64,000 bases of DNA from Chthonomonadaceae bacterium (GCA_043762265.1 JAYUMV010000239.1:2142-66141); one strand, 5' to 3'. Shown: positions 118 through 34,584, counted from the first letter of the stretch. Notes: generated from the letters alone by a model not told the origin. A program made the numbers and translations.

Positions 118-360
118 GCGATGTTATCTCGTGAGCCTGTAGACCTCTGGATCGGCATACCGTTGTTGATGAGTTCCATGCCCTTAGTATGCCGGAAGGC
201 TTGTGGATGGAAGCGGTATAGTGATCTTTGATTCCTTGATCCGCTAATTCTTGAGGTTGGAATTAACGGATTAGACCGGCAAAGATCATATATAGTGTAT
301 GATGGCCCAAAGAACTTAGACACGAAAAGGGACGGAAATACGTTAGATCAATGTAACTAT

Positions 361-537
361 TCACCCGGCGCATTCCGGGTAGATGAGTTCTCCTCGGAAG
401 ACGTGCTCCAACGCTGACAAGATTTGCTTGCCTTGCTTTCGGATCGTGCAAATATAGGAACGGATCCGGCAGAATGCATCCGCTCCCTCCGTGCTTCGGA
501 AACATCCCGAGACTTTCTGACTGAGGACGGTGCATGG
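361..537 (-). mobile_element. IS66-family transposase C-terminal remnant (about the last 55 codons only)
   Basis: The translation ...QKVSGCFRSTEGADAFCRIRSYICTIRKQGKQILSALEHVFRGE... matches the conserved C-terminal block I recall from IS66-type transposases. No upstream transposase body is present. It abuts the truncated regulator gene. Confidence 0.5.
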
Positions 538-544
538 GATTATG

Positions 545-2305
545 AGCGTTTCCCAGCAACAGCCCCTGCTCTCGACATTTACCCAACGCCCTCTCGAAAT
601 ACCCGCAGGCCTTTTCATACCTGCCAGCCTCTGCATGCGCGGAGCCTACGTTGTTGAGCAGGTTTGTAACAAGGCGCTCGTCTCCCAACCGCTCAGCCAG
701 TCGCCGACTTTGCTCCGCCAGCGCGCAGGCGCGATCAAAGTCGGCTACCTCTATCGCCACCATCCCCAGGTTGTTCAGCGCACGGACCGCCGCCGCATCG
801 TCTCCCGCCTGCTCGGACTCTGTCAGCGCGTGCTCGAACGCCTCCTGAGCCTAAAGGTAATCCTTCAGCATCGCATGCAGAGACCCCAGTGCGTTCCAGG
901 CCGTCCTGCGCTCTGGAGTGGCCTCTCCATAATGCCGTTGAAGCGCATCCCGCAGCTAGTCGCGCCCCTCCGCCCAGCCACCTCGATTGCACCAGTAGTG
1001 CATTAGCGCGTTCAATAGCGCCAGTTCGAGCTTCTGCCCGGTCACCGAGCGCCGACACCAAGCGACAGCGGCACGCATATTCTCCCGATCAATGATCGCC
1101 ACCGGGTAAGAACGCGCACGGGCGATGAGAGCTGTGACCAGCCGTTCATATCCCGCTTCGACTTCGAAGGGACTAAGCTGCTCCAGCCCGAAATCGCGCA
1201 ACGTCTCCAACATGTAAAAATGAAGCGAGGTTCCTGTCGGATCCTCTTGCTCGCGCGCGAGCAGAAACGAGGCTTCCCGTAGGCGCTGAAGCCTCTCTGG
1301 CACCGTGCGAGCATCGTCGGCCATGACGGCCGCCGTCTCCAGTGTCCACTCCCCGCGCAGCAGGCACAGCCGGCAGAAAAACGCCTGCAATTCCGGCTCC
1401 AGCAGCCGGTAACTCCACGCGATACACGTCTCCAGCGCCTGATGCCGGAGCGCCATTCCCTTGCGCCGTGCCCGCAGCAGTTCGAAACGTCGATCAAGCC
1501 GCGCCAGCATCTGCGCTGGCGAGAGCGTCTGCGCCCAGCTCGCCGCCAGTTCCAGCGCGAGCGGCAGCCCTTCCAGCCGTCGGCACAAAGCCGCAACACT
1601 CGCCGCATTGCGCACCGTCAACTGAAAATCCGCACACGCCGCCTGCGCCCGATCGACAAACAACTGTACGCTCGCGATCTCCAGCAGACATTCCGGGCTG
1701 TCCATGTGTTCCGGTGTAGAGAGAGGCGGCAACAGAAGTTCGCGCTCGCCATCCAGATTCAGCCGCTGTCGGCTCGTGGTCAGAATAGTAAGACGCGGAA
1801 GGCGGTGCAGAAGATCAGCGACGATCTCCGCGCCCTCTTCGGCGATCTGTTCCATGTTGTCAAGCACCAGCAGGCTGGAGCTTCCCCCCAGCGTAGACGC
1901 GATCACGGCCATCGGCTCGCGATCGGCTGGAGGATTCGGGCAGACTGCTTCTGCGATCCTCTCTGCCATGCGTTCGGGGGTATGGGTATCGGCCAGCCCT
2001 ACAAAACAGACGAACCGATCTGCGCCAGCACAGTCCCGCGCGGCTTCGATCGCAAGACGCGTCTTACCTGAGCCCCCGACTCCCAGCAATGTCACAACAC
2101 GCGGTCGCCAGCGCCGATGTATCGGCAGGAACTCTTCGCGTGCTGTCACCGCCTCTGTGGGCGGCTTCAACATAGCGCACAGACGAGCGAGCTCCTCCTC
2201 CCGACAAAAAAACGGCGTCAGTGCGAGGGGAAGGCGTACAGCAGAGTGGGCAGGGAGGGGACAAGGCGATTGTTGCGCTACGCAAGCCGATGCAGCCTCG
2301 GACAA
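545..2305 (-). pseudogene. NB-ARC/TPR regulator paralogue, decayed (no BTAD domain, two in-frame TAG codons, 3' end replaced by the IS66 remnant)
   Basis: One reading frame is roughly 70 % identical (by eye) to residues about 295–840 of the 3916..6723 protein (GGSGKTRLAIE Walker A; 38 identical aa AALCRRLEGLPLALELAASWAQTLSPAQMLARLDRRFE). TAG at 956-958 aligns with W and TAG at 851-853 aligns with Q of the paralogue. Confidence 0.8.
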
Positions 2306-2518
2306 TCTAGGCTTTGCGCCATGCGTTTTAAGGGCACTCCAACCCGAAAATTCCTGATGAATGCCTGGGAAGCGCTATGTTCGACCGCTATCCCCCACGA
2401 TTTTCTCTTTATTTACGCATGTAATCGGATTTTCATTCCCGTGCTGCCGTCCCGCTCGGCCCCGGATCCATTTCCAATGTCGCCTCCTCGATTCCTATCT
2501 TCCCTTGGATCCCAGCTA

Positions 2519-2558
2519 TAAAAAATTCCCCGGTGGCCATCTCGTGGCGACCGGGGAA
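2519..2558 (-). terminator. Rho-independent terminator of the HAF/PEP-CTERM gene
   Basis: Minus strand: TTCCCCGGT-(15 nt loop)-ACCGGGGAA followed by TTTTTTAT, about 30 nt after the stop codon. Confidence 0.65.
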
Positions 2559-2589
2559 ATCATCTCGCGGACCTGCGCGACTGCGGCCC

Positions 2590-3762
2590 TTATTTTCGGC
2601 GCTTGCGTCGTACCGCGAAACCGATACCGGTCATGCTCATCCCCATCAGCAGGGCGACCGCGCCCGGCTCTGGTGTCGTCGCCACGGTCGCGTCCGGAAC
2701 CAGCAGGAAGGCACGTCTCTTACCAGCCGGATCGACACCGGTGCCGACGATATAGCCGTTGTCGGTAATGCCCGTCGCGTCCGTCAGCTGCCATCCCGTG
2801 CTGCTGGCGTCCAGGTAGTTGTTCAGATCGTACAGCGCGGTGTCGTAGTAGAAAGCCCGATTGGCGGACTGCCCGACCACATCTCCGAAATTGTCGATCG
2901 CGCGCCCCTGAGAGAAGAAGCCATCGAAGGAGCCGATGTTGGTCGCCGTACCGTCGATCAATCCGCCCACCGTGGTGCGAAAAGCGTGGCTGTACCCGGA
3001 CCCGTCGTCCGAATACCCCGTCACCTGGCCGAGATCGTTGATCGCATAGGCCGCGGAGGCGCCGCCCGCTCCCGCGAAGGTACCCAGATCCGAGCCGCTG
3101 TCGATAAGGCCTCCAGAGGTCGTGCGGAAGACATCCTGCTGAGCAGGGCTTCCGGACACAATGGAAAAGCCGACGATCTGATTGTTATTGTTGATGCCCT
3201 GTGCGGAGGAGTAGTCTCCGCTCAGCGCGCCCAGGTCCACCATCCCCCCATTGCTGTACCGGAAGCCGTGCTTCGTGAAGGTTCCATTCTTGTCCGAAGT
3301 ACCGGCGATGATTCCCGCCGCGTTGATTGCGTTGCCCTGAGACTGCAGACCTGTCGTCAGCGTCCCCAGATCGTGCATCGTTCCGTCGTAGAAGAACGCG
3401 TGGCGATAGTTCCCGGTTGCGTTTGCCCAGCCCGTGATCTGACCGAGGTCGTTTATCCCATATCCGATGGCGCCACGGCCGCCCAGAGTTCCGGTGTCAT
3501 GCATTGCGCCGTCGTAAAAGAACGACCGTGGATTCCCATCGTTGGGGATAAAGGAGAAACCCGTTACCTGTCCGCTCGAATTGACAGCCTCTGCTGTCGA
3601 GCCGCCGAAGACTCCCGAGCCACCCAGCGTGCCGAGGCCTATGGCCTGGTAGAGCGGTGGAGTCGCCAGAGCGGCTGGCGCCGCAGCCAGGGAGCCGGAG
3701 AAGAGGGCAAAAGTGAGGAGGAACCTGTGGCCGTGGAGGCTTCGATGGCGGTTGCGTACAAT
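2590..3762 (-). CDS. HAF-repeat extracellular protein with PEP-CTERM sorting signal (start codon unresolved)
   Basis: Repeated ..HAF(F/R)YDG.M.DLGTL..G.INDLGQ(I/V)TG.. units. C-terminus is TPEPGAVALLMGMSMTGIGFAVRRKRRK. The frame stays open upstream of the ATG at 3504 and encodes another repeat plus a signal peptide (RFLLTFALFSGSLAAAPAALA), with no in-frame ATG/GTG/TTG. Confidence 0.75.
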   Translation of the reverse strand: MVRNRHRSLHGHRFLLTFALFSGSLAAAPAALATPPLYQAIGLGTLGGSGVFGGSTAEAVNSSGQVTGFSFIPNDGNPRSFFYDGAMHDTGTLGGRGAIGYGINDLGQITGWANATGNYRHAFFYDGTMHDLGTLTTGLQSQGNAINAAGIIAGTSDKNGTFTKHGFRYSNGGMVDLGALSGDYSSAQGINNNNQIVGFSIVSGSPAQQDVFRTTSGGLIDSGSDLGTFAGAGGASAAYAINDLGQVTGYSDDGSGYSHAFRTTVGGLIDGTATNIGSFDGFFSQGRAIDNFGDVVGQSANRAFYYDTALYDLNNYLDASSTGWQLTDATGITDNGYIVGTGVDPAGKRRAFLLVPDATVATTPEPGAVALLMGMSMTGIGFAVRRKRRK

Positions 3763-3915
3763 GCGTATCGGGCGGCGTATAAGAATCAGACGGCAGCGAC
3801 GAGAATGGACAGTGCGAATATCGCAGATAGGCTCGCGTTGTGGTAAGGGAGAGGCTATTGCTCGTTGGTCTCCCGCAAATACGAAAATGGCGAATGGATA
3901 TAGGAAAAGGCTTCT

Positions 3916-6723
3916 ATGTTGGAAGAACCCTGGCGTGTGACCCTATGCGGCGGCTTATCCGCGCGCCAGGGCGCCCATAGCGTGTCGCGTTTTCGGACGC
4001 AGAAGACGGGACTTTTGCTGGCTTATTTGGCACTACATAGGGAGCGCACGCACGGGCGCGAGGAGTTGGCCGAGCTTTTCTGGCCCGAAAGCGCCGACTC
4101 GCTGCATAGTCTGAGGCTAGGCTTGGCCTCGCTGCGTCAGCAACTGGAGCCGCCGGGAGTGGGCAGGGGGCAGGTGTTGAGAGCGGATCGCAACCATGTC
4201 GGGCTGGTGTCCGGGACCGTGCGTACGGATGTGGCCGACTTTCACGCGGCAGTCGCGGAAGCGGCGCGCACGGTGGAGACGAAGCAGACGACGCAACGGC
4301 TCCGGGACGGCGTGGAGGCCATTTCGGGCGAACTGTTGCCGGGGAGCTATCTGGAGTGGGTGTTGCAGGCGCGTGAGATTCTGTCGGAGCAGTTGCAGAG
4401 CGCGCTCAAGGATCTGGTCGTGTTGCTGATTGCCCAGGAGGAGGCGGAGTCGGCGCTGCCGTTTGCGCTGCGACGGGTGCATCTAAACCCGCTGAACGAG
4501 GAGGCGCATCTGGCGGTGATGCAGTTGCTGCTGCGGTTGGAGCGCCCGGCCGACGTGCCACGGCAGTTCGAGCATCTGCGTGCGCTGTTAAAGGAGATCG
4601 GCATTGCGCCCTCCCTGCAGGCGCAAGAGTTGGCGGATGGCTGCCTCTCGTTTTCGGAGGATCCTGTTGTTTCGGTTCTTAGCTTCGGTGGATTGGGTGC
4701 GCGTCCGGTCGCCTCCCTGGTCGGCCCACTGCCGGCCACTCCCCCGTTCGCCCCTCCGCGTTTCCCTCCCGCGCCCTCCGTTTCAACCCGGCCTGCGGTT
4801 CGTCTGCCTCTGCCTCTTACCTCTTTCTTCGGGCGAGAGACGGAGTTAAGCCAAATACGCGCGTTGCTGGCGCCGCCTTCTGCCGCTAATGCGGATGGCG
4901 AAGAGCTTTTGTCAGGCGCGCAGCTCTGGCGCGCGCGTGTGCTGACCGTGCTTGGAACGGGAGGCTCGGGCAAGACACGACTGGCGATCGAGGTCGCACG
5001 CCTCTGCGCCGCCGACGCCGATAGGACGGTCTGCTTTGTAGAGTTGGTGGATGCGGACACCCCCGAACACATGCTGCAGGCGATTGCGGAGGCGGTCTGC
5101 CCGCATGCACCGGCCGATTGCCTGCCTTTGGAAGGGATTGTGAAGGCCCTTGGAGCAGGAGCGACTCTGTTGATCCTGGATAACATGGAGCAGCTCGTCG
5201 AAGAGGGCACGGAGGTCGTTGGGCGACTGCTGGAGCGGCTGCCGGACCTGACGATCCTGGTGACGAGCCGACTTCGCCTGAGCTTGGCTGGGGAACGCGA
5301 GTTTCCTCTGTTGCCGCTACCCACCCCTGAGCGCGCCGATGCGCCGGAGTGCCTGATGGAGTTTGCGAGCGTGCGGTTATTTGTGGACAGGGCGCAGGCG
5401 GCCCGCGCCGATTTTCAGTTGACCGCGCGGAACGCCGCCGCTGTGGCGGCGTTGTGCCGGCGGCTAGAAGGACTGCCTCTGGCGCTGGAGCTTGCGGCAA
5501 GTTGGGCGCAGACGCTCTCTCCGGCGCAGATGCTGGCGCGTCTGGATCGGCGGTTCGAGATGTTGCGCACGCGGCAGAGAGGCGTGGCCTCGCGGCATCA
5601 GGCGCTCGATGTGTGTATCGACTGGAGTTTTCGCTTATTGGATCCGGAGTTGCAGACTTTTTTCTGCAGGTTATGTCTGCTGCATGGGGAGTGGACCCTG
5701 GAGACGGCGGAGGCCGTCGTCGGGGAGAGAGATATTTTGGAGAAAGTGCAGCGGTTGCGGGATGCCTCTTTGCTGCTGGTGCGCGAGGCGCAAGACGCGG
5801 AGGGAACATCGCTGCGCTTTCACATGCTAGAGTCGTTACGCGAGTTCGGGCTGGAGCGATTGGAGCCGAAGGAGTGGGATACCGGACATGAGCGTCTAAC
5901 GCACTATTTTAGCGCCCTCTCCGGCCCAGACCCTTTTGCGACGGTCGATACCGAAAACGTGCGCGCAGTCGTCTCCTGGTGTCGCACTTCAGCGGTCGGG
6001 TATGCGCTGGAACTGGATCTGCTCAATGCGCTCATGCATTTCTGGGGCAATCGCGGTGGCTGGGTAGAAGGACGGGACTGGTTACAGGCGGCGCTGGAGC
6101 GCCATGCGGGGGAGGCCGTTCTTGCGCAGAGGAAGGCATGGAATACGCTCGGCTTTCTACATGCGATGCTGGGTGACGACGGCCAAGCCCGAGACTGTTT
6201 CGAACGCCTGCTGGCCGATTCGGAACGGGCGGAAGATCCGATGATGGCCGTGCGCGCCCTGAGCAACCTGGCGATTATTGCGATGAGAGCAGAAGACTTT
6301 TCACAGGGATGCGCGCTTATGGAGCAGAGTCTGTCTCAGGCGGAGAGACTCGGGGATGCGCGGATGATTGCCACGCAAAATTACAATTTGGGCGCAGCGT
6401 ACGTGGAACTGGGACACTATGAAGAGGCGCGCCGTTTGCTTGATCGGAGTCTGCTGCAGAGCCGTGAACAGAATTTTGCGGCTGGCGTCGCTCTCTGCCT
6501 CTGCAGCCTTGCTGAGGTGGCGCGAAAAGAGGGAGATAGCCTGGCAGCCCGGCAGATGCTTGAGGATAGTCTGGAGATATTTCGCTCTGTCGGCGAGCAG
6601 CCGCGTATCGCAGAGATGCTCGATCGCCTGGTAAAACTCTTGGAAGCTGAGGGGGATGTGCTCCAGGCACGTCTTTATGCCGAGGAGAGCGCTCTGCTGC
6701 AGACGCAACTGCGGGGTGAATGA
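3916..6723 (+). CDS. SARP/AfsR-like regulator: OmpR-type wHTH + BTAD + NB-ARC ATPase + TPR
   Basis: N-terminus WRVTLCGGLSARQG..VSRFRTQKTGLLLAYLA. BTAD-like helical region. Walker A GTGGSGKTRLAIE. C-terminal TPR units (NLAIIAMRAEDFSQG.., NLGAAYVELGHYEEA..). Confidence 0.9.
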   Translation: MLEEPWRVTLCGGLSARQGAHSVSRFRTQKTGLLLAYLALHRERTHGREELAELFWPESADSLHSLRLGLASLRQQLEPPGVGRGQVLRADRNHVGLVSGTVRTDVADFHAAVAEAARTVETKQTTQRLRDGVEAISGELLPGSYLEWVLQAREILSEQLQSALKDLVVLLIAQEEAESALPFALRRVHLNPLNEEAHLAVMQLLLRLERPADVPRQFEHLRALLKEIGIAPSLQAQELADGCLSFSEDPVVSVLSFGGLGARPVASLVGPLPATPPFAPPRFPPAPSVSTRPAVRLPLPLTSFFGRETELSQIRALLAPPSAANADGEELLSGAQLWRARVLTVLGTGGSGKTRLAIEVARLCAADADRTVCFVELVDADTPEHMLQAIAEAVCPHAPADCLPLEGIVKALGAGATLLILDNMEQLVEEGTEVVGRLLERLPDLTILVTSRLRLSLAGEREFPLLPLPTPERADAPECLMEFASVRLFVDRAQAARADFQLTARNAAAVAALCRRLEGLPLALELAASWAQTLSPAQMLARLDRRFEMLRTRQRGVASRHQALDVCIDWSFRLLDPELQTFFCRLCLLHGEWTLETAEAVVGERDILEKVQRLRDASLLLVREAQDAEGTSLRFHMLESLREFGLERLEPKEWDTGHERLTHYFSALSGPDPFATVDTENVRAVVSWCRTSAVGYALELDLLNALMHFWGNRGGWVEGRDWLQAALERHAGEAVLAQRKAWNTLGFLHAMLGDDGQARDCFERLLADSERAEDPMMAVRALSNLAIIAMRAEDFSQGCALMEQSLSQAERLGDARMIATQNYNLGAAYVELGHYEEARRLLDRSLLQSREQNFAAGVALCLCSLAEVARKEGDSLAARQMLEDSLEIFRSVGEQPRIAEMLDRLVKLLEAEGDVLQARLYAEESALLQTQLRGE

Positions 6724-6849: not shown

Positions 6850-6902
6850 AGACGGTGCAGACGGACGCTTGAGACGCTGTTGAGACGATAGGTCACTATA
6901 AT
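6850..6902 (+). promoter_or_regulatory. Activator-type promoter: TTGAGACG x2 (11-nt register) - 9 nt - TATAAT, with two extra AGACGG copies upstream
   Basis: TTGAGACG at 6869-6876 and 6880-6887; TATAAT at 6897-6902. The hexamer 17 nt upstream (ACGCTG) is not -35-like. AGACGG at 6850 and 6859. Confidence 0.6.
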
Positions 6903-7039
6903 GGGTGTGTACGTGGGTGTTTCAGGCAGGCGGGCGCAGGGAGAACTGCCGGCACTATGTCTCTCCGTGCGCCGCGCGCCTGTTTGCGAACCCCTCGCTG
7001 CAATGACTTTCATTTCTGTTCTGGAAAGGGACAACACCC

Positions 7040-7762
7040 ATGTTCACGACACGCTCTTCTTCTCGCCGCGCCCTCTCGGCGTCGGCAAGCCTCCTGCTCC
7101 TCGGCGGCGCCCTGGTCTGCTCTGCACCGCAGGCCCATGCCGATCAGTACCTGGTCGGTGCCCTGCTGTTCGCCGCAGATTTTACAGGTGCGACCACCGC
7201 CTCCACTTCCTATCAGTACGATACGAATACTGGGAACGGGGCAAATACAACCGCGCTCAACTTCACTTTCAATGGGACGACCTTCGGCAAAGGCATCTCT
7301 CTTCTGCTGCCCAGCGGCAACAGTACCTTGTCGTTCGTTGAGAACGTGGTGACTCCAATCTCGCAGTTCAACGGAACCGCAGGAGATCTGGGGCTGTTCT
7401 TCTCCTCGACCAACACGCCGTACAACCCGGCCGCTGGGGCTCGAACGCCCGATCTGCTGGTATCCCGCGCTACGAATGGGTCCACGGCGTTCTTCTTCCC
7501 CACAGCGGGAACCTCGATCAACGACTATGTCTTTCCCGGCAATCGCGCTTACAGCGGAGCGACCAGCGCGACGCCGGGCTCACTTCCGATCACGGTGACA
7601 AGTTATAGTGTCGATAATAATGGGAGCGGCTCCGTGACTTTACGGGTGGGTGCTGCGGGAGCGGCCACGCCGGAGCCCGGCAGTATCGCCCTGCTTGTCG
7701 GAATGGGACTGACCGGCGGCGCCGTCGCACGACGCCGACGCAGAACCACGCTCGGCAGCTAA
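7040..7762 (+). CDS. Secreted PEP-CTERM protein, S/T/N/G-rich, function unknown
   Basis: Signal peptide MFTTRSSSRRALSASASLLLLGGALVCSAPQAHA. C-terminal TPEPGSIALLVGMGLTGGAVARRRRR. Confidence 0.85.
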   Translation: MFTTRSSSRRALSASASLLLLGGALVCSAPQAHADQYLVGALLFAADFTGATTASTSYQYDTNTGNGANTTALNFTFNGTTFGKGISLLLPSGNSTLSFVENVVTPISQFNGTAGDLGLFFSSTNTPYNPAAGARTPDLLVSRATNGSTAFFFPTAGTSINDYVFPGNRAYSGATSATPGSLPITVTSYSVDNNGSGSVTLRVGAAGAATPEPGSIALLVGMGLTGGAVARRRRRTTLGS

Positions 7763-7807: not shown

Positions 7808-7849
7808 TTCCCCGTCCGCGCCTCTGTTGCGGACGGGGAATTTTGTTTG
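7808..7849 (+). terminator. Rho-independent terminator
   Basis: TTCCCCGTCCGC-(9 nt)-GCGGACGGGGAA followed by TTTTGTTTG. Confidence 0.8.
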
Positions 7850-8006: not shown

Positions 8007-9701
8007 ATGGCCCTATTTGAGCGAGGTACGGCAATTGAGCAGTCGATTTTGGAGGCGCTGGCGGAGACTCCGGGGAAGATGCGACCGATCATGGAGCGCT
8101 ACGAGGCCGACCGACATAGCCTGGAACGAAAATATCCGTTGATGTTGTCGGTCGTGCGCCGAGAGCGGATGAATCGTTTTTTTGCAGGTTGGCGGGCCGC
8201 GCTGGAAACCCTGGACTTTGCGTCCTTCGCGCACGACGATCAGATCGACTTTTTGCTGTTTGACAATCACCTGCGGCATCAGTTGCGGCGACTGGCGATC
8301 GAAGCCGCACGCGCGGAAGAGACCGCGCAGCTGGTTCCGTTTCAAGCGAGTCTGCTAGGCCTCGAAGAGCAGCGCCTGCGCATGGAATGGGTTCAGCCGG
8401 AAGCGGTGGCGACGCTCCTCGACAAAACCGAGAAGCAGATTCGGCTGCAACAGCAAGCGCTCCACGACGACCCGCAGGCGAAGACTACCTGGAAAACAAC
8501 GGTTGCCAATCGCGCCGCCGATGCCGTTGAAACGCTGCGCAACGCCCTGAAGCGCTGGAATAAGTTTTATAACGGATACGATCCGCTCTTTACCTGGTGG
8601 GTAACGGAACCGTACCGTGCCGTGGATGCGGCGCTGGAAGAGTACGCCGGATTCTTGAGAGAGCATCTGGTGAGAGGCGAGAAGGGCGCGATCGTCGGGG
8701 ATCCGTTGGGGCGCGCTGCGCTGACTGCCGAACTCGCGTTTGAGATGATCCCCTATACGCCGGAAGAGTTGATCGCGATCGGAGAGAAAGAGTTCGCCTG
8801 GTGCGAATCGGAGATCCAGCGTGTGGCGGCGGAGTTAGGACTGCCGGACCATCATGCCGCACTGGAGCATATCAAATCGCAGCACCGTGCGCCGGGAGAG
8901 CAGCCCGAGATGATCCGAGCGATGGCGGAGGAGGCGGTGGAGTTTCTGCACGCTCATGACCTCGTCACGATACCGCCATTGGCCGAGGAGACCTGGCGCA
9001 TGGAGATGATGACGCCTGAAGCGCAGTTGGTCAACCCGTTTTTCCTGGGTGGCGAACTGATTCAGGTCTCCTTCCCGACCCATACTATGACGCATACGCA
9101 GAAACAGATGAGCCTGCGCGGCAACAACCCGCATTTTGCCCGCGCCACGGTACAACACGAACTCATACCCGGACATCACCTACAGATGTTCATGCTGACG
9201 CGGTACCGCCCCTATCGCCGCACCGTGGGCACCTCCTTCTGGATCGAAGGCTGGGCGCTCTACTGGGAGATGCGCCTCTGGGATCTGGGATTCCCGCTGA
9301 CGCCCGAGAATCGCCTGGGAATGCTGTTCTGGCGCTCCCACCGAGCCGCCCGTATCGTCTTCTCGCTCAAATTTCACCTCGAACAGATGACCGCTCCCGA
9401 GTGTGTCGCCATGCTGATCGAACGCGTCGGCCATGAGCCTGCGAATGCAGAGGCCGAAGTGCGACGCTCGTTCAAAGGCGATTACGGCCCCCTCTACCAG
9501 GCCGCTTACATGCTCGGAGGACTTCAGATGAGGGCGCTGCACCGGGAGTTGGTGGAAGAAGGTTCCCTGACGGAGCGCGCTTTTCACGATGCCATTCTGC
9601 GCGAAAACAGCCTCCCGATCGAGATGCTCCGCGCTGCCCTAACCCTGCAGCCTCTGACCCGTGATTTCGTCTCGTCCTGGCGATTCTACGGGGAAGAATG
9701 A
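8007..9701 (+). CDS. DUF885-family protein (putative metallopeptidase-like)
   Basis: Motif HELIPGHHLQ is typical of DUF885. The ATG at 8007 has a GAGGAGA Shine-Dalgarno; the ORF-track start at 7983 is TTG. Confidence 0.8.
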   Translation: MALFERGTAIEQSILEALAETPGKMRPIMERYEADRHSLERKYPLMLSVVRRERMNRFFAGWRAALETLDFASFAHDDQIDFLLFDNHLRHQLRRLAIEAARAEETAQLVPFQASLLGLEEQRLRMEWVQPEAVATLLDKTEKQIRLQQQALHDDPQAKTTWKTTVANRAADAVETLRNALKRWNKFYNGYDPLFTWWVTEPYRAVDAALEEYAGFLREHLVRGEKGAIVGDPLGRAALTAELAFEMIPYTPEELIAIGEKEFAWCESEIQRVAAELGLPDHHAALEHIKSQHRAPGEQPEMIRAMAEEAVEFLHAHDLVTIPPLAEETWRMEMMTPEAQLVNPFFLGGELIQVSFPTHTMTHTQKQMSLRGNNPHFARATVQHELIPGHHLQMFMLTRYRPYRRTVGTSFWIEGWALYWEMRLWDLGFPLTPENRLGMLFWRSHRAARIVFSLKFHLEQMTAPECVAMLIERVGHEPANAEAEVRRSFKGDYGPLYQAAYMLGGLQMRALHRELVEEGSLTERAFHDAILRENSLPIEMLRAALTLQPLTRDFVSSWRFYGEE

Positions 9702-9880
9702 GGTTTTGCATGGCATGGTGGGGGCCTTCCCTGAAATTTGACTCTGTTGCCGGGTTGGCACTGCAACTCTTCCCGCCAATGCGTTCGTAAAAACGCTGAC
9801 ACGACTTTCGTCTGTCTCGCTACGGTGGAAAGCCGGGCGGGAAACGCTCTTCTAAATTCGTTTTTGAAAGGTTTCTACCT

Positions 9881-10846: not shown

Positions 10847-10935
10847 GCGGTGCACCCGAACAGGATCGATGCAAAACTTTGTATGAGAGGCGTTCGGGAG
10901 TCTGCTCAGAAGAGAAAAAGGGAAAGGAGAGCCCT

Positions 10936-11418: not shown

Positions 11419-11496
11419 CGCCTGCTAACCGCTGCGTTCCTATAGCGGGAACTTACGCGTTCCAGACGTAGATCGGCATCGCCTCCCCAACAAGAA

Positions 11497-11535
11497 AAAC
11501 GGCGCTGTTCTCAGGATCTGAGATCAGCGCCGTTT
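11497..11535. terminator. Bidirectional terminator hairpin between convergent genes
   Basis: 18-bp stem (1 mismatch) AAACGGCGCTGTTCTCAG-gat-CTGAGATCAGCGCCGTTT, flanked by an A-run and a T-run. Confidence 0.7.
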
Positions 11536-11588
11536 GGCGTGATGCCTTCGGTTCGCGCAGTCTGCCATGTCTCTCGTTTGGCGCCAGA

Positions 11589-12952: not shown

Positions 12953-12963
12953 TTGCGTCCTCC

Positions 12964-13464: not shown

Positions 13465-13476
13465 GGTAATCTCCTT

Positions 13477-21221: not shown

Positions 21222-21287
21222 ATATCACGGTAAACTCCGCATATATCACGCCTTTGTCATGAAGATGTTACGTTGGAAGTGTATCCT
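21222..21287 (+). promoter_or_regulatory. Activator-type promoter: ATATCACG / ATATCACG / ATGTTACG (21–22-nt spacing) - 9 nt - TATCCT
   Basis: Repeats at 21222, 21243 and 21265; TATCCT at 21282-21287. Lies inside the ORF-track start extension (21259), which supports the ATG at 21337 as the real start. Confidence 0.5.
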
Positions 21288-21336: not shown

Positions 21337-22431
21337 ATGAAAACGCGAATGACGATGAATGTGCTCTCCGCCTTGCTCCTGCTCCTGGCCCTGACGCCAC
21401 GAGCCCATGCCGACGCCGCCGGGCCGACGGTGCTCAAACCCAGTATGAATATCATGGTGACGCGCTACCTGCGTTATTTCCCCACGCCGACGGCGGCGGA
21501 GCCCACCTACAACACCTGGAGTTGGCGGCCCCGTTTCAACTTCACCCTGGCCGGTCCGATTACGGGCGGCAGCCAGATCAGCATCTCTTTCTTCAAGCCG
21601 GACGGCAGCGCCTGGCTGACTATGCCGTTGCCGGTAAATGAGATTGCCGAAGGACAGACGGTCCCGGTCGTCAATCCCAACGACTCCACGCAGGACGCCG
21701 AGCGCCACACGACAACGCTAATCGGCACCTTCACCTTCAAAATCAATATGAAGAACCCGCTGACGAGCACCAACAAGACGCTCTATGCCGGTAAATTCAC
21801 GGTCAACAAGTTCCATGTCGGCCCCAACCTTCCGGCGAACGCGCATCAGTGGGACTACTATGTCGAGCACGACTGGCTGCTGCCCATCGGCTACCTGGGC
21901 TGGAAACAGGATCCGAGCGAGCAGGCGCCGCAGCTGATGTCGCTGATGTGGTTCCGGGGCGATCTGAAGCAGGAACAGGTCTCGGCCTACATGTACTACA
22001 AGGGCAAGCAGATCAGTAGCACGGGCAATTCGGAGCAGGGCAGCAGCTATCCGCAGTACAGCCTCATCCCGCCGAGCACGCCGGAAGATCCGCGTTGGGT
22101 AGGATTTGTCTTCCGCTTCTTCAACGTCGCAACGACCAACAAGAAGACCACCGACAACCCCTTGACGGACACCTTTTTCCTGGACAAGAATCCCGGCGCC
22201 TACGAGATCAAAGTCCTGGTCAAAGGCCAACTGGCGCGGACCACGTCGTTCATGGTCGGTGAGGACGGTAAAGTCGTGGACCCCGGCATCGCCGCTGCCA
22301 ACGGCATCAGCCCGATGCCCATCATCCTGCCGCTGAAGGTGATCGCGGGTGGCGATGTGAAAGTCGTCCCGACGACTTACAAGACGGACGCCTTCTTCGG
22401 CAACCCGCTCAACAAGTTCATGATCCCCTGA
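21337..22431 (+). CDS. Secreted protein, function unknown
   Basis: MKTRMTMNVLSALLLLLALTPRAHA signal peptide. SD GGGAGGAA upstream of the ATG at 21337. No recognisable motif. Confidence 0.75.
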   Translation: MKTRMTMNVLSALLLLLALTPRAHADAAGPTVLKPSMNIMVTRYLRYFPTPTAAEPTYNTWSWRPRFNFTLAGPITGGSQISISFFKPDGSAWLTMPLPVNEIAEGQTVPVVNPNDSTQDAERHTTTLIGTFTFKINMKNPLTSTNKTLYAGKFTVNKFHVGPNLPANAHQWDYYVEHDWLLPIGYLGWKQDPSEQAPQLMSLMWFRGDLKQEQVSAYMYYKGKQISSTGNSEQGSSYPQYSLIPPSTPEDPRWVGFVFRFFNVATTNKKTTDNPLTDTFFLDKNPGAYEIKVLVKGQLARTTSFMVGEDGKVVDPGIAAANGISPMPIILPLKVIAGGDVKVVPTTYKTDAFFGNPLNKFMIP

Positions 22432-23857: not shown

Positions 23858-23874
23858 AAGGCAGGTCCGAGGTT

Positions 23875-23902
23875 GCGGCCTGACCAAATCAGGCCGCATT
23901 TT
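23875..23902 (+). terminator. Rho-independent terminator
   Basis: GCGGCCTGA-ccaaa-TCAGGCCGC followed by ATTTTC. Confidence 0.7.
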
Positions 23903-25990: not shown

Positions 25991-27952
25991 TCACTGGGTC
26001 ATCCGGTAACCGTTGTAGGTGAGCGACCGGCGCAGGTACGCACCGAACTCACCCTGCGCCAGTTGCTGATTGGTGTTGAGTTGGGCCAGAACAGCCTTGT
26101 AGCTGTTCAGCAGCCGTCCATCCCCGTCCAGATCCTGGTCCTGCCACTCGCGTGCGGCCACTCCCAGCACGGTCATGCGCTCATCGACCTTGCGGATCGC
26201 CTCCGGTACGCGCCCCTGGGCGATGAGAGTCGCGGCATCCGTAAGCGCCTCGCCGGTCTGGAACCCGAGCAGGTTTTTCTTGACGTTGCGATGGATGGAA
26301 TCGATCATGTCCGCGCGGTTCGGAGTGTATTGGATGGCGACCGTGCTTCTGGTTTCGCGATTGGCCTTGAAGGCGAGGTCTTTGTACTTCATGAAGACAT
26401 CCGCAATCCTGCAGGTTCCCTGACCGCGCGGCACGGTAATCTCCAGCATGACGACATGGCTGTCGCCTCGATAGAAGTCGGGGATCAGCATTTTGATGCC
26501 CGGTTCGTCCGGAGTGTGCTGGCGGTTGGACGAAATTCCCAACTCCTCCGCCACCTTGCGATCGATGTGCTTTTCGTCTGCCTTGACGCGGGCGGTCTGT
26601 TGGGCGTCGAGCGTGGAGGAACCGAGTACGCGCACCAGGCCGACGCCATCGGCGAGTTGGATTCGGAGTCGGATCGCTTTCGCGACGACATGAGTCAGGT
26701 CGTCCAACTCCTTCGCAAAGACCTGCCGGGTATCCACGCCATCCCGCAGGAAATGGTAACTGCCCTTGCCGTCGCGCGCGATCCCGAGCATGAGATCCTC
26801 GTTGAACTCGACGCCGACCCCAATGGCGCTGGTCTGTATGTCCTGATCGGCGCTGACGCCGCTCACCAGTTGTTGGAACTGCTTCGGATCCTGAATACCT
26901 GCGGTCACCTCTCCGTCCGAGAGCAGGATCACCCGGTTGACTCCATCGGCGATCCGGTTCTTGGCGGCTTCCCGGTAGCCAAGGCTCAGTCCATCGTAGA
27001 TATTAGTGCCGCCTCCCGGCGCCAGCGCTGCGATCTGTTGCTTGATCCGGGCGCGGTTAGCGCCGCGCTGCGCGGGGACAAGGATCTGGGCGGTATCGTC
27101 GAAGGCGATGAGGGAGAACACATCGTTAGGGCCGAGATGGTCCAGAAGCGAGATCACGGCCGACTTCACGAAATCGAGCTTATGCTCATCGGCCATGGAT
27201 CCGCTGCGGTCGATGACCAGGGCGATGTTGAGCGGCGGACGCCGAGGCGTTTCGCCCTTCATTCCCTGAATCCCGATCTGCAGATAGGTATGATCGCCTT
27301 CTTGAATAACCGTTCCGCGCTCCGTATCCACGTTTAGCCCAAGCGCGGTTTGGGTCGGGATCGGGAACGTCTGCGCGTAAGTTCGGACAAAGGATTCGAG
27401 TTTGACACGCTTGCCATCGACCACTACGCCTGCCTGGATCAGTTTCTCCAGCCGCTCCTTCTCGCCGTTCCCGCCAAGATAGTTGCTCGCAACGTACATG
27501 TTCGGATTGTAAGTTGTCTGTCTGCTGCCGCCGCCCCCTGCAGGCATCACACGCATCGACATGGGGATGCCCCCCACCCTTGCCCCACCAGAAAAGTTGC
27601 TGCTCGCGGAAGGGTACCCGCTGGACATTCTGCTCTTCCCGAGTGACGGCATATACCGAAGCTGCATCGTCGCAGAGGCGGCAGCGGCTACTTTAGCGGA
27701 TGCGTCGTTGGGCACACTTTTTGTAACGTCTGTGGGCATAGCCGCTGCGTCCCGGCTTGCATAGGGAGGCGTGGTCGGAGTGGCACGGGACACCTTTTGT
27801 TCGCCTGCGGTCAGCGCGGCAAGGCTTGCCGGTTGGCTCGACGCAGTTCGGGCAACAGGATTTGACCGTTTGTCCGTCGCCGAACATCCTCCTAAAAGCG
27901 CCAACGCGCTTCCGAGAGCAAAACGGGCTCCGATGGCAACTCGAACATTCAT
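25991..27952 (-). CDS. von Willebrand factor type A (vWA) domain lipoprotein, YfbK-like architecture
   Basis: Lipobox ALALLGGCS. MIDAS motif VIDRSGSM...LIAFDD. vWA-N-like segment (VDGKRVKLESFVRTYAQTFP). Confidence 0.85.
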   Translation of the reverse strand: MNVRVAIGARFALGSALALLGGCSATDKRSNPVARTASSQPASLAALTAGEQKVSRATPTTPPYASRDAAAMPTDVTKSVPNDASAKVAAAASATMQLRYMPSLGKSRMSSGYPSASSNFSGGARVGGIPMSMRVMPAGGGGSRQTTYNPNMYVASNYLGGNGEKERLEKLIQAGVVVDGKRVKLESFVRTYAQTFPIPTQTALGLNVDTERGTVIQEGDHTYLQIGIQGMKGETPRRPPLNIALVIDRSGSMADEHKLDFVKSAVISLLDHLGPNDVFSLIAFDDTAQILVPAQRGANRARIKQQIAALAPGGGTNIYDGLSLGYREAAKNRIADGVNRVILLSDGEVTAGIQDPKQFQQLVSGVSADQDIQTSAIGVGVEFNEDLMLGIARDGKGSYHFLRDGVDTRQVFAKELDDLTHVVAKAIRLRIQLADGVGLVRVLGSSTLDAQQTARVKADEKHIDRKVAEELGISSNRQHTPDEPGIKMLIPDFYRGDSHVVMLEITVPRGQGTCRIADVFMKYKDLAFKANRETRSTVAIQYTPNRADMIDSIHRNVKKNLLGFQTGEALTDAATLIAQGRVPEAIRKVDERMTVLGVAAREWQDQDLDGDGRLLNSYKAVLAQLNTNQQLAQGEFGAYLRRSLTYNGYRMTQ

Positions 27953-30744: not shown

Positions 30745-30778
30745 TAGAAAAGCCGCTCGGTCCATTGAACTGAGCGGC
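30745..30778 (-). terminator. Rho-independent terminator of the lipoprotein gene
   Basis: Minus strand: GCCGCTC-(13 nt)-GAGCGGC followed by TTTTCT. Confidence 0.55.
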
Positions 30779-30821
30779 CGATGAGCGGCCTTTTGCTGCC
30801 GCTGCTGCGAGAGTGACAAGA

Positions 30822-31367
30822 TCAGGTAGTCCCCTTGGTCAGCGTGATCGTGCCGGAATTGGTGGTGCCGTCGGTGTTGTGAACGATAACGTTCAGCGTC
30901 ACGCTCTGGGAGGTGGATGGTCCTCCGTAGTTGATGCTGCTGACGGTGGGAGAGATGTTGGTGATGAGGCCGGTAAACAGGCCCGATTTGGCGATGGTGA
31001 GATTGGCCACAGTCGCCGTGCCGGAGGGGCCGGTAACGGTGATCGCATCGTTGTTGTAAGAGCCTGTCAGGGCTGTCTGGGAGCCCGCGAAGCCGAACTG
31101 ATTGCCGCTGAGGGCGATGGTTATGGTCGCCGCCTTCGTCGTGGGGTTCAGGGTGATGTTCATCGTAGAGGTGCCGCTGGTGCCGTCGACGTCGTGCCAT
31201 TGGCCGCTCCAGGTACCGGCGTAGGCCGTGGCAAAGCTGGTGGTGTTCACGGTCCCGTTGCCACTGCCTCCACAGCCTGTAAGCAAGGATGCTGCGACGA
31301 CGGCCAGGCAGGCGAACAGAGTAAATGCCATGCGTTGGGACGATCCTGGAAAATTGAGGTGTTTCAT
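30822..31367 (-). CDS. Small S/T/N/G-rich lipoprotein, function unknown
   Basis: Lipobox SLLTGCGGSG. SD AAGGAG. Confidence 0.8.
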   Translation of the reverse strand: MKHLNFPGSSQRMAFTLFACLAVVAASLLTGCGGSGNGTVNTTSFATAYAGTWSGQWHDVDGTSGTSTMNITLNPTTKAATITIALSGNQFGFAGSQTALTGSYNNDAITVTGPSGTATVANLTIAKSGLFTGLITNISPTVSSINYGGPSTSQSVTLNVIVHNTDGTTNSGTITLTKGTT

Positions 31368-31433
31368 AGTCTGGTGTCTCCTTAACGAGGGCGTAAGCGG
31401 TGCCTACGGCCCGGTTTAGTATTGGCTCCATCA

Positions 31434-31467
31434 GACTCTACAGCACGCCCATTACAACATCATTACA
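31434..31467 (-). promoter_or_regulatory. Activator-type promoter: TTGTAATG x2 (11-nt register) - 9 nt - TAGAGT
   Basis: Minus strand: TTGTAATG-atg-TTGTAATG-ggcgtgctg-TAGAGT. Lies 37 nt after the regulator stop and about 60 nt before the lipoprotein ATG. Confidence 0.6.
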
Positions 31468-31503
31468 AAGGAAACCCCGACTATCTCGGCTGCTCTTTCA
31501 AAC

Positions 31504-34500
31504 TCACGCAGATTCATTTTTCGACTGCAATGCCAACGAGATCGCGGCTTCGAGAGGCAGGCTTCTTCCTCTCTTCAGGCCGTCGAGGAAGCGAGGATCG
31601 GTGGCTACAGGGAGAAATGCGTCGTCAAATAGTTCCGCCTCTAGGGAGGACTTCTCTGACTGCATCTTGTGTCGGAGAGCCTGGGCAGCGCCCATCAGGA
31701 CGCCAGCACGTTCAGGAATTTCGGTCAGGACGGCATGGAGGGCGAAGCCCTCAAGGGCATGGGCCTGACCGAAACGACTGCCCACCGCCCTGTGGAGCTG
31801 CAGACTCTCCGTGAAGCAGCGAGAAGAGGCAGTATAGTCTTGTAGAGACAGATAGTTCTCCCCGAGGTTTACCAGACTTATGCCGGTAGCGTACCGATCC
31901 TCCAGTTCCCGCGCGATCATAAGCGCCTCCTCATGTACCTTTATGGCCTCCGCATACTCCTCCCGATAGTGCGCTAACGCGCCCAGATTGTTCAGAGTAG
32001 ACCAGATAGCCCCACGGTCACCGATCTGTTTGCGTAGATTGAGCGCTTCCTGGAGATTGACCTGGGACGCCTCGAAATCTCCCATAGATGTCTGGAGAGA
32101 GCCTATGTTATTCAGGCCCGTGGCGATGCGCCAGGTTATTCCCAGTTCCCGGAGGATGGCCAATCCCGCTTCATAGTAACGCAGGGCCTCCTTCAACTTG
32201 CCCTGTTCGCTGTAGTAAGTGCCTATATTGCTCAGCGTCAGGCCGATCCCTTCCAAGTTTCCTGCCTGCCGAAAATAGAGCAGCGCCTGCTCCTGGTGCG
32301 CCAGGGCCTGTGGATAGGCGCTTTCAGATTTCGCCAGTCCCGCAGCCGTCACGTAAGCACGGGCCAATACCTGCGGATCGAGGCCCGGTGCTGCGCGCTC
32401 TAGAAGCTGTTTTGTGAACTGTCGGTCTTCCCGGGTGCTGCCGCGCATATCCCAAAATCTCCAGAGCGATCCCACGATTCGCAGGCCGATTTCAGTCGGA
32501 GAGGGAGAGAGATCGGCGGTCGGCGCCTCGATACACCAGGTTAGCGCTGCCGTCAGGTTGGCGTGATCCTCCTCCAGTCGCTTCAGCAGGTCGCCCAGTT
32601 CAGGGCCGTTCAGACGAGGTGCGATCTCTTCCACCAGTTTCATCAGGCATAAAGCATGTGTATACTGTATCCGCTCCTGTTCCCAAGGCGGCAACTGCTC
32701 CCAGGCAAACTCCCGCAGCGTCTCCAGCATGCGAAAGCGCATCGCTCCGCTACGCTCTTCGGCGATCAAGAGCGATTCCGAGACCAGCCTCTCCAGCAGA
32801 TCGAACGCACTCCATCGGGCCGGTTCCAGCAGTACACTTCTCGACCCGTCTTCTTCGTCCCTCGGCAGGCACACCTCTGCCGCTTCCTTGGCATCCCAAC
32901 CGCCCTGAAAGACTGCCAACCGCGCAAAGAAACGCCGTGTTTCCGGGGAAAGCATCTGTACGCTCCAGGCGATGGCGGTGCGGAGTGAGCGATGGCGGGC
33001 GTCTTTATCGGCGCGTGGATTGACAAGCAGTTCGAGGCGCGGCACCAGGCGGTCGCTCATCTGCGCCGGGGTCATGGTGCGGATGCGCGCTGCTGCCAGT
33101 TCAATAGCCAGGGGAATGCCTTCTAAATACCGGCACAAGGTTGCGATGGCTTCGGCATTACGAGGGGTGAGTTGAAAGTCGGGGCGTACCGCCTGTGCCC
33201 TATCGAGAAATAGGCGAACGGAAGCGAACGTCGTCAGGGCTTCGGGAGTCGTCTCTCTCGTCGGCGTCGCCAGGGGAGCCAACGGAAACTCTTGCTCCCC
33301 CGCGATCCCGAGTACACGGCGAGAAGTCACTGCGAGCGTCAGAGACGGGACCGCTGCGAGCAGCGTCTGCACCAGCGAAGCTCCCTGCTCGACAAGATGT
33401 TCGAAATTGTCCAGAATGAGCAGAGAGGGAGCCGCCGAGAGCGCCGCGATCACCTGATTCAGGGGCGCGATGCCTCCCTGCGCAGGCAGGCGCAGGGTCT
33501 GCCGAAGGGCATCCGGCAACTGGCCGATATCCAGCAGGTTGCCCAGATAGACGAAGCGAACGCCGCCTGCAAACTGCGCCTGCAGTAAGGCCGCCGTCTC
33601 GATGATCAGGCGAGTCTTGCCATTGCCGCCCGGCCCGGTAAGCGTTATGAGACGATTTGTCTGCAAAAGGGCTGCAACGCGTGCTTGCTCCCGCTCTCTG
33701 CCGAAAAAACGCGTGAGACGCACGGGCAGTTCGACAGGGAGCGAAGGTATGGGAACGGTAGGCACGACCGGAGTAGGCGGCGCAAGCGTGGGAGCGTCGG
33801 CGGTAACGCCAACCCGCAATGCGGCTCCATGCCCCAATCGGTCACGTACCTGCTGAATAAAATTTCTTGCTGCCGCCGTCGGTTTGGCGTCGAACTGCTC
33901 CCGCAGGGTCTGTTCCAGGGTCGCGTACTGGCGAAGCGCAGCAGAGGGTTGTCCGACCGCAACGAAAAGACGGATGAGATCGAAGTGCGCCTCTTCGTTC
34001 CAGGCATCGGCCTGAAGCGCACGCTGGGCATAGGCGATCGCTTGATCGAAATCCCGCTCATGGGCCAGCCTCCGAATCAGTCTCCGCAGGGCCTCCTGAT
34101 GCAAGGAAGCAAGCCGCTCGCGCTCCGCAGCGATCCAATCGGCATCATAGCCCGGCAGCAGGTCGCCACGATAGAGGTCGACAGCCTGCGCCAGGAGTCG
34201 GATCTGTTCGGGTCGCTCTGACGCCCTGCCCGCCTGCGCCAACCCCTGTTCGAACTCTGCGGTATCGATCAGGAACGCTTCCGGATGCAGGCGCACCAGG
34301 AACCGGTCCGCTTCAATCAGCGGTGGCGCTGCTTGACCAGGCGCTTGAAACTGCCGTCGCAGAGCCGCCAACTCTACCCGTAGTCGGTTGCGCGCGGCCT
34401 CCGGGTCCTCGTCGGGCCAGAGCCGCAGCAGCAACTCTTCACGCGGCAACGTGCAATGGGGATGGAGCGCCAGGGCTGCCAGCATCTCGCCACCCTTGCG

Positions 34501-34584
34501 GGTACGAAAGCGATCTACCATCTGCTCGCCCTGTCGGGCGATAAAACCACCCAGTAGTTGAATTCTCCAGCGCTCCGTGAGCAT
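31504..34584 (-). CDS. SARP/AfsR-like regulator: wHTH + BTAD + NB-ARC + TPR
   Basis: MLTERWRIQLLGGFIARQGEQMVDRFRTRKGGEMLAALA. Walker A GPGGNGKTRLIIE. C-terminal TPR array. Confidence 0.9.
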   Translation of the reverse strand: MLTERWRIQLLGGFIARQGEQMVDRFRTRKGGEMLAALALHPHCTLPREELLLRLWPDEDPEAARNRLRVELAALRRQFQAPGQAAPPLIEADRFLVRLHPEAFLIDTAEFEQGLAQAGRASERPEQIRLLAQAVDLYRGDLLPGYDADWIAAERERLASLHQEALRRLIRRLAHERDFDQAIAYAQRALQADAWNEEAHFDLIRLFVAVGQPSAALRQYATLEQTLREQFDAKPTAAARNFIQQVRDRLGHGAALRVGVTADAPTLAPPTPVVPTVPIPSLPVELPVRLTRFFGREREQARVAALLQTNRLITLTGPGGNGKTRLIIETAALLQAQFAGGVRFVYLGNLLDIGQLPDALRQTLRLPAQGGIAPLNQVIAALSAAPSLLILDNFEHLVEQGASLVQTLLAAVPSLTLAVTSRRVLGIAGEQEFPLAPLATPTRETTPEALTTFASVRLFLDRAQAVRPDFQLTPRNAEAIATLCRYLEGIPLAIELAAARIRTMTPAQMSDRLVPRLELLVNPRADKDARHRSLRTAIAWSVQMLSPETRRFFARLAVFQGGWDAKEAAEVCLPRDEEDGSRSVLLEPARWSAFDLLERLVSESLLIAEERSGAMRFRMLETLREFAWEQLPPWEQERIQYTHALCLMKLVEEIAPRLNGPELGDLLKRLEEDHANLTAALTWCIEAPTADLSPSPTEIGLRIVGSLWRFWDMRGSTREDRQFTKQLLERAAPGLDPQVLARAYVTAAGLAKSESAYPQALAHQEQALLYFRQAGNLEGIGLTLSNIGTYYSEQGKLKEALRYYEAGLAILRELGITWRIATGLNNIGSLQTSMGDFEASQVNLQEALNLRKQIGDRGAIWSTLNNLGALAHYREEYAEAIKVHEEALMIARELEDRYATGISLVNLGENYLSLQDYTASSRCFTESLQLHRAVGSRFGQAHALEGFALHAVLTEIPERAGVLMGAAQALRHKMQSEKSSLEAELFDDAFLPVATDPRFLDGLKRGRSLPLEAAISLALQSKNESA

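Follow-up and report, generated by a model that had tools for sequence, protein, structure and literature searches.

The window analysed here, a 64,000-nucleotide (64-kb) stretch of Chthonomonadaceae DNA (GCA_043762265.1, JAYUMV010000239.1:2142-66141) with a G+C content of about 60%, has uncultured Chthonomonadaceae of the phylum Armatimonadota as its nearest relatives. Within 35 kb it holds three intact genes whose products combine winged helix-turn-helix (wHTH), BTAD, NB-ARC and TPR domains, together with one truncated pseudogene of the same kind. The three intact proteins, designated R1, R2 and R3, are probably large SARP-family, AfsR-like STAND activators, each of which would act through a private operator on an adjacent gene or operon for exported cargo (T1, T2 and T3, respectively), so that the mechanism of AfsR would serve another output. 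An earlier reading of this DNA, made from the sequence alone, had proposed four BTAD-NB-ARC-TPR loci in 35 kb, three intact and one decayed, and the open reading frames (ORFs), the Pfam domains and an R1-like remnant with stops bear this out (Table 1).

All the sequence-level features of large SARPs are found in R1-R3. The BTAD domain (PF03704) follows the DNA-binding domain with Pfam scores of 45.4, 74.9 and 63.9 bits in R1, R2 and R3, against a gathering threshold (GA) of 22.1, and TPR_12 at the C-terminus scores 62.5-85.7 bits in the three proteins against a GA of 30.1. The central P-loop STAND NTPase gives matches of the NB-ARC, AAA_16 and NACHT types: NB-ARC scores of 22.8 and 20.7 bits lie slightly below the GA of 23.5, the decayed copy reaches 27.3 bits, and AAA_16 scores 47 bits in R2. 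The Walker A (GxGGxGKT), Walker B (LLILDN), TSR and GLPLA motifs are intact; those of R1 include GTGGSGKT, LLILDN and GLPLA. The N-terminal domain appears to be an OmpR-type winged helix. Trans_reg_C (PF00486) scores 27.2 bits in R3 (GA 26.2) and 21.7 bits, below GA, in R1, and is unlisted in R2; residues 50-475 of R2, which include the DNA-binding domain, align with residues 25-439 of AfsR (PDB 8k60/8jke; E=2e-18), and the region of the recognition helix and N-terminal helix-turn-helix can be aligned across all homologues. The proposed architecture holds in Pfam, with BTAD and TPR_12 above GA in all three proteins, NB-ARC slightly under GA and Trans_reg_C above GA in R3 only, and the earlier assignment to SARP-type STAND proteins agrees with domains, motifs and the AfsR alignment. 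With the NCBIfam AfsR equivalog NF053617, R1-R3 score 41-83 bits against a cut-off of 1430; because the scores are so far below the equivalog cut-off, the three are relatives of AfsR and not its orthologues. The association with secondary-metabolite clusters that is typical of large SARPs, and not strictly defining, is absent. Pairwise identity among R1-R3 is 33-37%, a level at which the paralogues appear to be old. More than 6,600 homologues are found at E<=1e-50, and homologues are already labelled 'predicted ATPase/DNA-binding SARP family transcriptional activator' by JGI pipelines. A subset of the homologues (the N-terminal region of locus L014 and many others) adds a class III adenylate/guanylate cyclase domain (PF00211) to the BTAD-NTPase-TPR core; in these proteins the sensor part is shared and the output module is another.

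In the decayed copy, window positions 2260-545 match residues 285-859 of R1 in a single frame with 61% identity and in-frame stops, and the entire DNA-binding half (wHTH/BTAD) is missing; this fourth copy is evidently a pseudogene. No further regulator copies occur in the 64 kb. Directly beyond the 3' remnant of the decayed gene lies an AT-richer stretch (1-420), free of recognisable repeats and of any cargo gene up to the end of the window, and it may mark the breakpoint that destroyed the decayed module.

Ahead of each exported-protein gene stands a predicted operator, and the three loci share one layout: locus-specific 8-bp direct repeats with an 11-bp period are followed after 9 nt by a -10 hexamer of the form TANNNT. 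The R1 operator, TTGAGACG-n3-TTGAGACG, has its repeats at 6869 and 6880, and the R3 operator, TTGTAATG-n3-TTGTAATG, has them at 31468 and 31457. The R2 operator is composed of five units spaced by about 11 bp, namely ATATCACG, AACTCCG, ATATCACG, TTGTCATG and ATGTTACG. The sequence-only reading had given each target gene a direct-repeat promoter of its own; repeats were indeed located at all three loci, and orthologue groups keep their operators. No promoter of the three has a -35 hexamer at 16-18 bp, and a sigma-70 scan returned no canonical promoter at loci 1 and 3. Each repeat pair is unique, with no second copy of any operator in the window. Direct repeats are likewise absent from the regulators' own upstream regions and from the vicinity of the pseudogene; autoregulation of R1-R3 and divergent targets were rejected because the upstream regions hold no direct repeats. 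SARP sites consist of heptameric direct repeats that recur in 11-bp units and overlap the -35 element (PMC10972967), and AfsR/SARP repeats lie 8 nt upstream of the -10 element, over -35 (PMC10972967, PMC11301090). The promoter geometry found here is this classical SARP/AfsR geometry, as in the promoters of large SARPs.

The gene next behind each intact regulator gene lies on the same strand and encodes a PEP-CTERM protein, a secreted protein or a lipoprotein, at a distance of 316 nt (R1-T1), 158 nt (R2-T2) and 136 nt (R3-T3), as the earlier reading had described. T1, T2 and T3 are identical to called proteins of the public record. Kinship among the three was ruled out, no mutual similarity being found, and the PEP-CTERM tail of T1 is the sole match in Pfam and NCBIfam, which yield no family for T2 or T3. 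This tail scores 22.2 bits with NCBIfam TIGR02595 (cut-off 16) and 19.0 bits with Pfam PF07589 (20.7); the C-terminus, with a PEP motif, a transmembrane helix and a basic tail, reads ...TPEPGSIALLVGMGLTGGAVARRRRR. The signal peptide of T2 ends ...ALTPRAHA, and its family comprises 38 clusters in 5.8e9 proteins, none of them named. The AlphaFold2 model of T2 (predicted local distance difference test score 82.7) is all-beta, and Foldseek matches are Fab-like two-sandwich chains only; the model resembles tandem immunoglobulin (Ig)-like sandwiches of a generic kind.

A single exported protein had been taken as the cargo of each regulator. Within the window this stands for T1, which is monocistronic because an intrinsic terminator follows it. 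It does not stand for locus 2, probably a three-gene operon, since no terminator occurs before that at 23874-23898, past two further genes. A homologue of the second gene (22500-23087) follows the T2 orthologue in L002, and a homologue of the third (23123-23857) in L001, with 61% identity, bears R2-type boxes of its own. T3 is followed by a hairpin with a T tract. In L056, the box TGTTCGGA is found on both sides of one regulator (~5800-6010 and 9483-9700), in each case ahead of a gene for a signal-peptide protein; as the same box fronts two such genes, L056 is a two-target module.

Table 1. Regulators, predicted operators, cargo genes and associated features, in window coordinates
Feature	Position	Strand	Basis or remark
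Decayed R1-like paralogue, NB-ARC and partial TPR only	545..2305	-	In-frame stops; wHTH/BTAD deleted
R1, large SARP (AfsR-like) regulator, wHTH-BTAD-NB-ARC-TPR, 935 aa	3916..6723	+	Pfam, motifs, orthologues
R1 operator (predicted)	6869..6887	+	11-bp period
Locus 1 -10 hexamer TATAAT	6897..6902	+	9 nt past proximal repeat; no -35 at 16-18 bp
T1 leader, conserved, structured, ~130 nt	6908..7039	+	Three-genome alignment, folding
T1, signal peptide and PEP-CTERM protein, 240 aa, cargo of R1	7040..7762	+	Profiles, sequence
Intrinsic terminator after T1	7808..7840	+	13-bp stem and T tract
R2, large SARP regulator, 1096 aa	17888..21178	+	Pfam, AfsR alignment, orthologues
R2 operator (predicted)	21222..21272	+	Five units
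Locus 2 -10 hexamer TATCCT	21282..21287	+	9 nt past last box
T2, secreted all-beta protein (tandem Ig-like sandwiches), 364 aa, orphan family	21337..22431	+	Signal peptide, model
Second gene of probable T2 operon, 195 aa	22500..23087	+	No signal peptide
Third gene of probable T2 operon, 244 aa	23123..23857	+	Signal peptide
First strong terminator past predicted R2-dependent promoter	23874..23898	+	
T3, lipoprotein, 181 aa, cargo of R3	30822..31367	-	Lipobox LTGC
Locus 3 -10 hexamer TAGAGT	31435..31440	-	9 nt past proximal repeat
R3 operator (predicted)	31450..31468	-	
R3, large SARP regulator, 1026 aa	31504..34584	-	Pfam including Trans_reg_C above GA, orthologues, sucC synteny

The operators persist in orthologous loci of other genomes, and the cargo varies behind them. 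R1 orthologues in L017 and L012 are 86% and 81% identical to R1 and have T1 orthologues directly 3' (75% and 39%); in both loci TTGAGACG-n3-TTGAGACG is invariant and is followed after 9 nt by TATACT. R2 orthologues occur in L001 (62% identity) and L002 (58%). R2-type boxes stand 9 nt ahead of TATCCT in L002, L088, L089 and L086 and of TACATT in L001; L002 and L089 possess three boxes with exact 11-bp steps, and the spacing in L088 is wider, as in the window. The boxes of L001 are 5.5 kb from the regulator, ahead of the homologue of the third operon gene. R3 orthologues show 65-73% identity and a common sucC synteny, and two copies of TGTAATG are kept in L081, L083, L084 and L167. A T3 orthologue (85%) lies behind the R3 orthologue in L081 and L167, and in L167, a metagenome contig, the whole R3-operator-T3 module is tandemly duplicated (1642-5356 and 8047-11605). 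L083 and L084 keep the R3 boxes, and the proteins driven there are two different, unrelated ones, each with a signal peptide and a PEP-CTERM tail. In these two loci (L083 6052-7185, L084 4529-5527) similarity to the window (31367-31503) stops just past the -10 hexamer, and a different exported-protein gene comes next; because the similarity ends there, the cargo-replacement junction is placed at about the transcription start. R3-type boxes are also found directly behind regulators 40% identical to R3 in L130 and L209, ahead of a 582-aa secreted protein. A metagenome scan for the TGTAATG pair was dominated by chance matches in low-GC contigs, and 3 of 120 loci were informative among the matches listed. 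The recognition-helix segment is invariant inside each orthologue group and differs between groups; since helix and boxes are kept per group while cargo diverges, regulator and operator travel together and the cargo varies.

The pairing was also surveyed among 79 regulators, 45 from Armatimonadota and 34 from other phyla (mostly Chloroflexi-type). A stringent site was defined as a repeated 8-mer that matches at 7 or more of its 8 positions, has a spacing of exactly 11 bp, precedes TANNNT by 8-10 nt and lies no more than 500 nt from the ends of the regulator. Such a site lies downstream on the same strand of 9 of the 45 Armatimonadota regulators, against 0.1 expected from Markov shuffles, and in upstream-divergent position at 6 of the 34 others, against 0.03 expected. 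With the match relaxed to 6 of 8, downstream sites are found at 16 of 45 Armatimonadota regulators (1.4 expected). Spacings of 9, 10, 12, 13, 16, 21 and 22 bp give no signal in this survey. Sites occur in 18 of 158 flanks around regulators and in 6 of 407 around other genes (Fisher P=1.3e-6), and site density is 12-fold higher near regulators. The first ORF behind the promoters looks like a signal-peptide or lipobox protein in 21 of 30 cases, the corresponding figure for other genes being 142 of 490 (29%; P=4e-6), and in the stringent set 17 of the 19 driven ORFs look exported. As orthologous loci are non-independent, these counts reduce to about 14 independent families, 12 of them exported. 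PEP-CTERM proteins, lipoproteins and prepilin-like proteins are among the cargo, as are an NHL propeller and a giant protein of beta-helix repeats; most lack a Pfam family. An earlier, cruder survey of downstream neighbours was noisy (it missed the T1 orthologue in L017) and was replaced by this promoter-based one. Pairs of a regulator with an exported-protein gene, which the sequence-only reading had treated as a possible family of modules, recur among relatives far above chance.

If R1-R3 act as AfsR-like activators, a cue would act on the C-terminal TPR sensor and NB-ARC would pass from the ADP-bound to the ATP-bound state, as the family suggests. Two or more wHTH-BTAD modules would then bind head-to-tail on one DNA face, at the locus-specific 8-bp repeats 11 bp (one helical turn) apart. 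The proximal repeat, ending 9 nt from -10, would take the place of the -35 element and recruit RNA polymerase, as for AfsR at afsS. R1 would thereby turn on the T1 surface protein, R2 the T2 operon with its secreted Ig-like proteins and R3 the T3 lipoprotein. Over evolution the regulator-operator pair would be retained and the cargo would evolve fast or be exchanged, the result being independent switches for remodelling what the cell secretes or displays on its surface. The sequence evidence covers architecture, AfsR homology, promoter geometry, co-conservation and enrichment. What we infer is that the adjacent regulator is the protein that binds the DNA, that its effect is to activate and not to repress, that it switches with ATP, and what kind of signal it senses.

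Several observations weigh against this interpretation. Even with relaxed stringency, no adjacent site was detected for about half of the regulators in the survey. Several T2-family genes, those of L089 and L086 included, bear R2-type boxes in the absence of a neighbouring regulator. Boxes and cargo are both missing from L082, and L001 lacks downstream cargo. The repeats of locus 2 are irregular, with 21- and 22-bp steps between good copies. Signal peptides were called by a home-made heuristic with a background of 29-42%, on genes from a crude gene caller. Adjacency alone is no proof that a regulator and a target belong together. A reverse test, which started from T2 homologues, found a regulator alongside in 3 of 9 contexts, although the boxes persist, and obligatory adjacency was rejected on this ground. 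The proposed pairing of regulator and neighbour is thus frequent and not obligatory; adjacency is common but dispensable.

In an alternative reading, the regulators would act mainly on distant targets, for example in secondary metabolism or the use of carbohydrates, in the way that AfsR acts through AfsS, and the adjacent gene would be a minor member of a larger regulon. AfsR also binds the promoters of pstS, phoRP and glnR (PMC10972967). In L056 two promoters bear boxes, T2 homologues with boxes occur unlinked to a regulator, and the search of this genome covered 64 kb. Each operator nevertheless occurs once in those 64 kb, and in every examined orthologue group the promoter whose boxes are conserved belongs either to the adjacent gene or to a homologue of the adjacent cargo. 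A mainly distant regulon is improbable.

Classical OmpR/PhoB response regulators likewise bind 11-bp direct repeats at a position overlapping -35, and this also counts against assigning the sites to R1-R3. OmpR/PhoB proteins, activated by phosphorylation of a receiver domain, generally place their winged helices head-to-tail on such repeats, which replace the -35 element. The repeats could then be pho-box-like operators of another member of that family, the SARP-STAND genes being unrelated or global and their adjacency a coincidence in a secretome-rich genome. The background of exported proteins is indeed high (20 of the 48 genes in the window with the loose heuristic; 29% of the other genes in the survey with the strict heuristic), and some box-bearing genes have no adjacent regulator. 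Against coincidence, operator sequence tracks the orthologue group and recognition helix of the regulator and not the cargo: L083 and L084 have the same boxes before unrelated cargo, and each paralogue has different boxes. Sites are enriched about 8-fold at regulator flanks with a strict orientation rule per phylum, and in L167 the whole module duplicates as a unit. This alternative is very improbable. R1-R3 also differ from PhoB/OmpR in that Pfam finds no receiver domain and, in its place, a STAND NTPase with a TPR sensor.

That the proteins are NLR-like immune sensors of the Avs type, whose TPR part detects a phage or foreign protein and induces an exported or membrane effector for abortive infection or surface masking, is the least credible of these alternatives and close to dismissed: the STAND NTPase with its TPR sensor, the expanded, divergent and partly pseudogenised paralogues, the fast-evolving, exchangeable cargo and its lineage-restricted orphan families would suit it, but PADLOC finds no defence-family match (a generic TPR profile and sub-threshold noise only), the N-terminus consists of an AfsR-homologous SARP module for DNA binding and not of an enzymatic effector, the cargo resembles surface proteins with a structural or adhesive role (PEP-CTERM, lipoprotein, Ig-like, beta-helix, prepilin-like), and the loci sit in housekeeping synteny (sucC) and not in defence islands.

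Among known systems, Avs and NLR-related anti-phage STAND proteins share with R1-R3 the STAND NTPase, the C-terminal repeat sensor and the diversity of paralogues; their N-terminal output is an enzymatic effector, whereas here it is predicted to be transcription, with no PADLOC family matched. MalT of E. coli is a STAND ATPase with a helical-repeat sensor, whose activation by ligand and ATP switches on exported-protein genes. R1 gives a weak match to NCBIfam MalT. MalT, however, has a C-terminal LuxR-type HTH and irregular MalT boxes, whereas R1-R3 have an N-terminal OmpR-type wHTH and BTAD, and Pfam detects in them no LuxR/GerE domain of the kind that MalT/LAL proteins carry at the C-terminus. 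Small and medium SARPs (ActII-ORF4, DnrI, RedD, CdaR) also set a wHTH and BTAD on heptameric direct repeats of 11-bp period beside -10 (PMC10972967); they control multi-gene biosynthetic clusters and mostly lack a TPR sensor, whereas no biosynthetic genes flank the regulators here. The closest comparison is AfsR-afsS of Streptomyces, with the same domain order (wHTH-BTAD-NB-ARC-TPR) and direct homology via R2. There, too, an adjacent gene is activated through two direct repeats one helical turn apart over -35 (PMC10972967, PMC11301090), the gap from repeat to -10 being 8 nt in AfsR-afsS and 9 nt here. The design of one regulator with one adjacent target, which had been put forward as undescribed, is therefore not new, since AfsR already activates afsS in this way. 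The two systems differ in phylum (Actinomycetota there, Armatimonadota/Chloroflexi-type here), in target (a small cytoplasmic sigma-like regulator there, an exported, surface or lipoprotein here), in the absence here of a link to antibiotic clusters, and in the presence here of several divergent paralogues, each with its own operator and with cargo that is swapped, behind a conserved promoter, from one orthologous locus to another. The most recent survey of AfsR-like proteins covers Actinomycetota only (bioRxiv 10.64898/2026.09.02.748808), and a search of the available library found no paper linking SARP/AfsR-type regulators to Armatimonadota/Chloroflexota or to exported cargo. The mechanism itself is known. 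Novelty lies in the phylum, in the exported cargo, in the expansion of paralogues with private operators and in the swapping of cargo.

Between the predicted promoter and T1 lies a conserved leader. Its mean column identity is 87% across the window, L017 (5021-5156) and L012 (8971-9116), though the T1 protein drops to 39%. It folds as a long hairpin (minimum free energy -59.3 kcal/mol, z=-3.9) with compensatory changes at four pairs and has no Rfam match; it could be a leader RNA element. The Rfam scan of the window gave a tRNA-Ser as its sole match.

The whole 35-kb stretch is unusually rich in exported-protein genes. Pfam annotation of neighbours and inspection of synteny revealed no biosynthetic genes flanking the regulators; the neighbours encode exported proteins without assigned function, DUF885, an aldo-keto reductase and a protein with the metallo-beta-lactamase fold, and they also include sucC and similar genes. 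A HAF/DUF3466-like PEP-CTERM gene (2590-~3750, minus strand), situated between the decayed paralogue and R1, has a good signal-peptide segment (...RHRSLHGHRFLLTFALFSGSLAAAPAALA) in frame, 5' of its first canonical start (ATG at 3504), and ATG, GTG and TTG are all absent ahead of this segment; either the start has been lost, or a non-canonical start is used, or the gene is a pseudogene. Three tandem genes of about 170 aa (12443-13998, minus strand) each encode a Phage Tail Collar domain (PF07484). To their 5' side, on the same strand, lie a PEP-CTERM gene (14031-14828) and a secreted beta-propeller/phosphoesterase gene (15152-17779), the latter divergent from R2. An ankyrin-repeat protein (24077-25033, plus strand) and a VWA-domain lipoprotein (25991-27952, minus strand) are encoded between the R2 and R3 modules.

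A more far-reaching proposal is that the modules are portable expression sockets, a large and so far undescribed class of NLR-like transcriptional switches with STAND sensors in Armatimonadota/Chloroflexi-type bacteria, in which a private 8-bp operator serves each fast-evolving, exchangeable exported protein and cargo is recombined at the transcription start. This is conceivable but unlikely. If true, it would provide a combinatorial, signal-gated surface repertoire, for example for recognition of substrates or partners or for escape from phages or predators, and a natural library of mutually orthogonal activator/operator pairs.

SARP/AfsR-type regulators are viewed in the literature as actinomycete antibiotic regulators. 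The same machinery and geometry are abundant in Armatimonadota and other phyla, where they appear to be wired to exported proteins without assigned function. Testable regulator-operator-target triplets are thereby offered for an almost unstudied phylum, along with a handle on the cues to which orphan secreted proteins respond. For promoter evolution, the loci would provide an example of a conserved activator/operator socket with exchangeable cargo, and for synthetic biology a panel of naturally orthogonal activator/operator pairs. No new mechanism is revealed; what emerges is an unexpectedly clean regulatory code for orphan secreted proteins.

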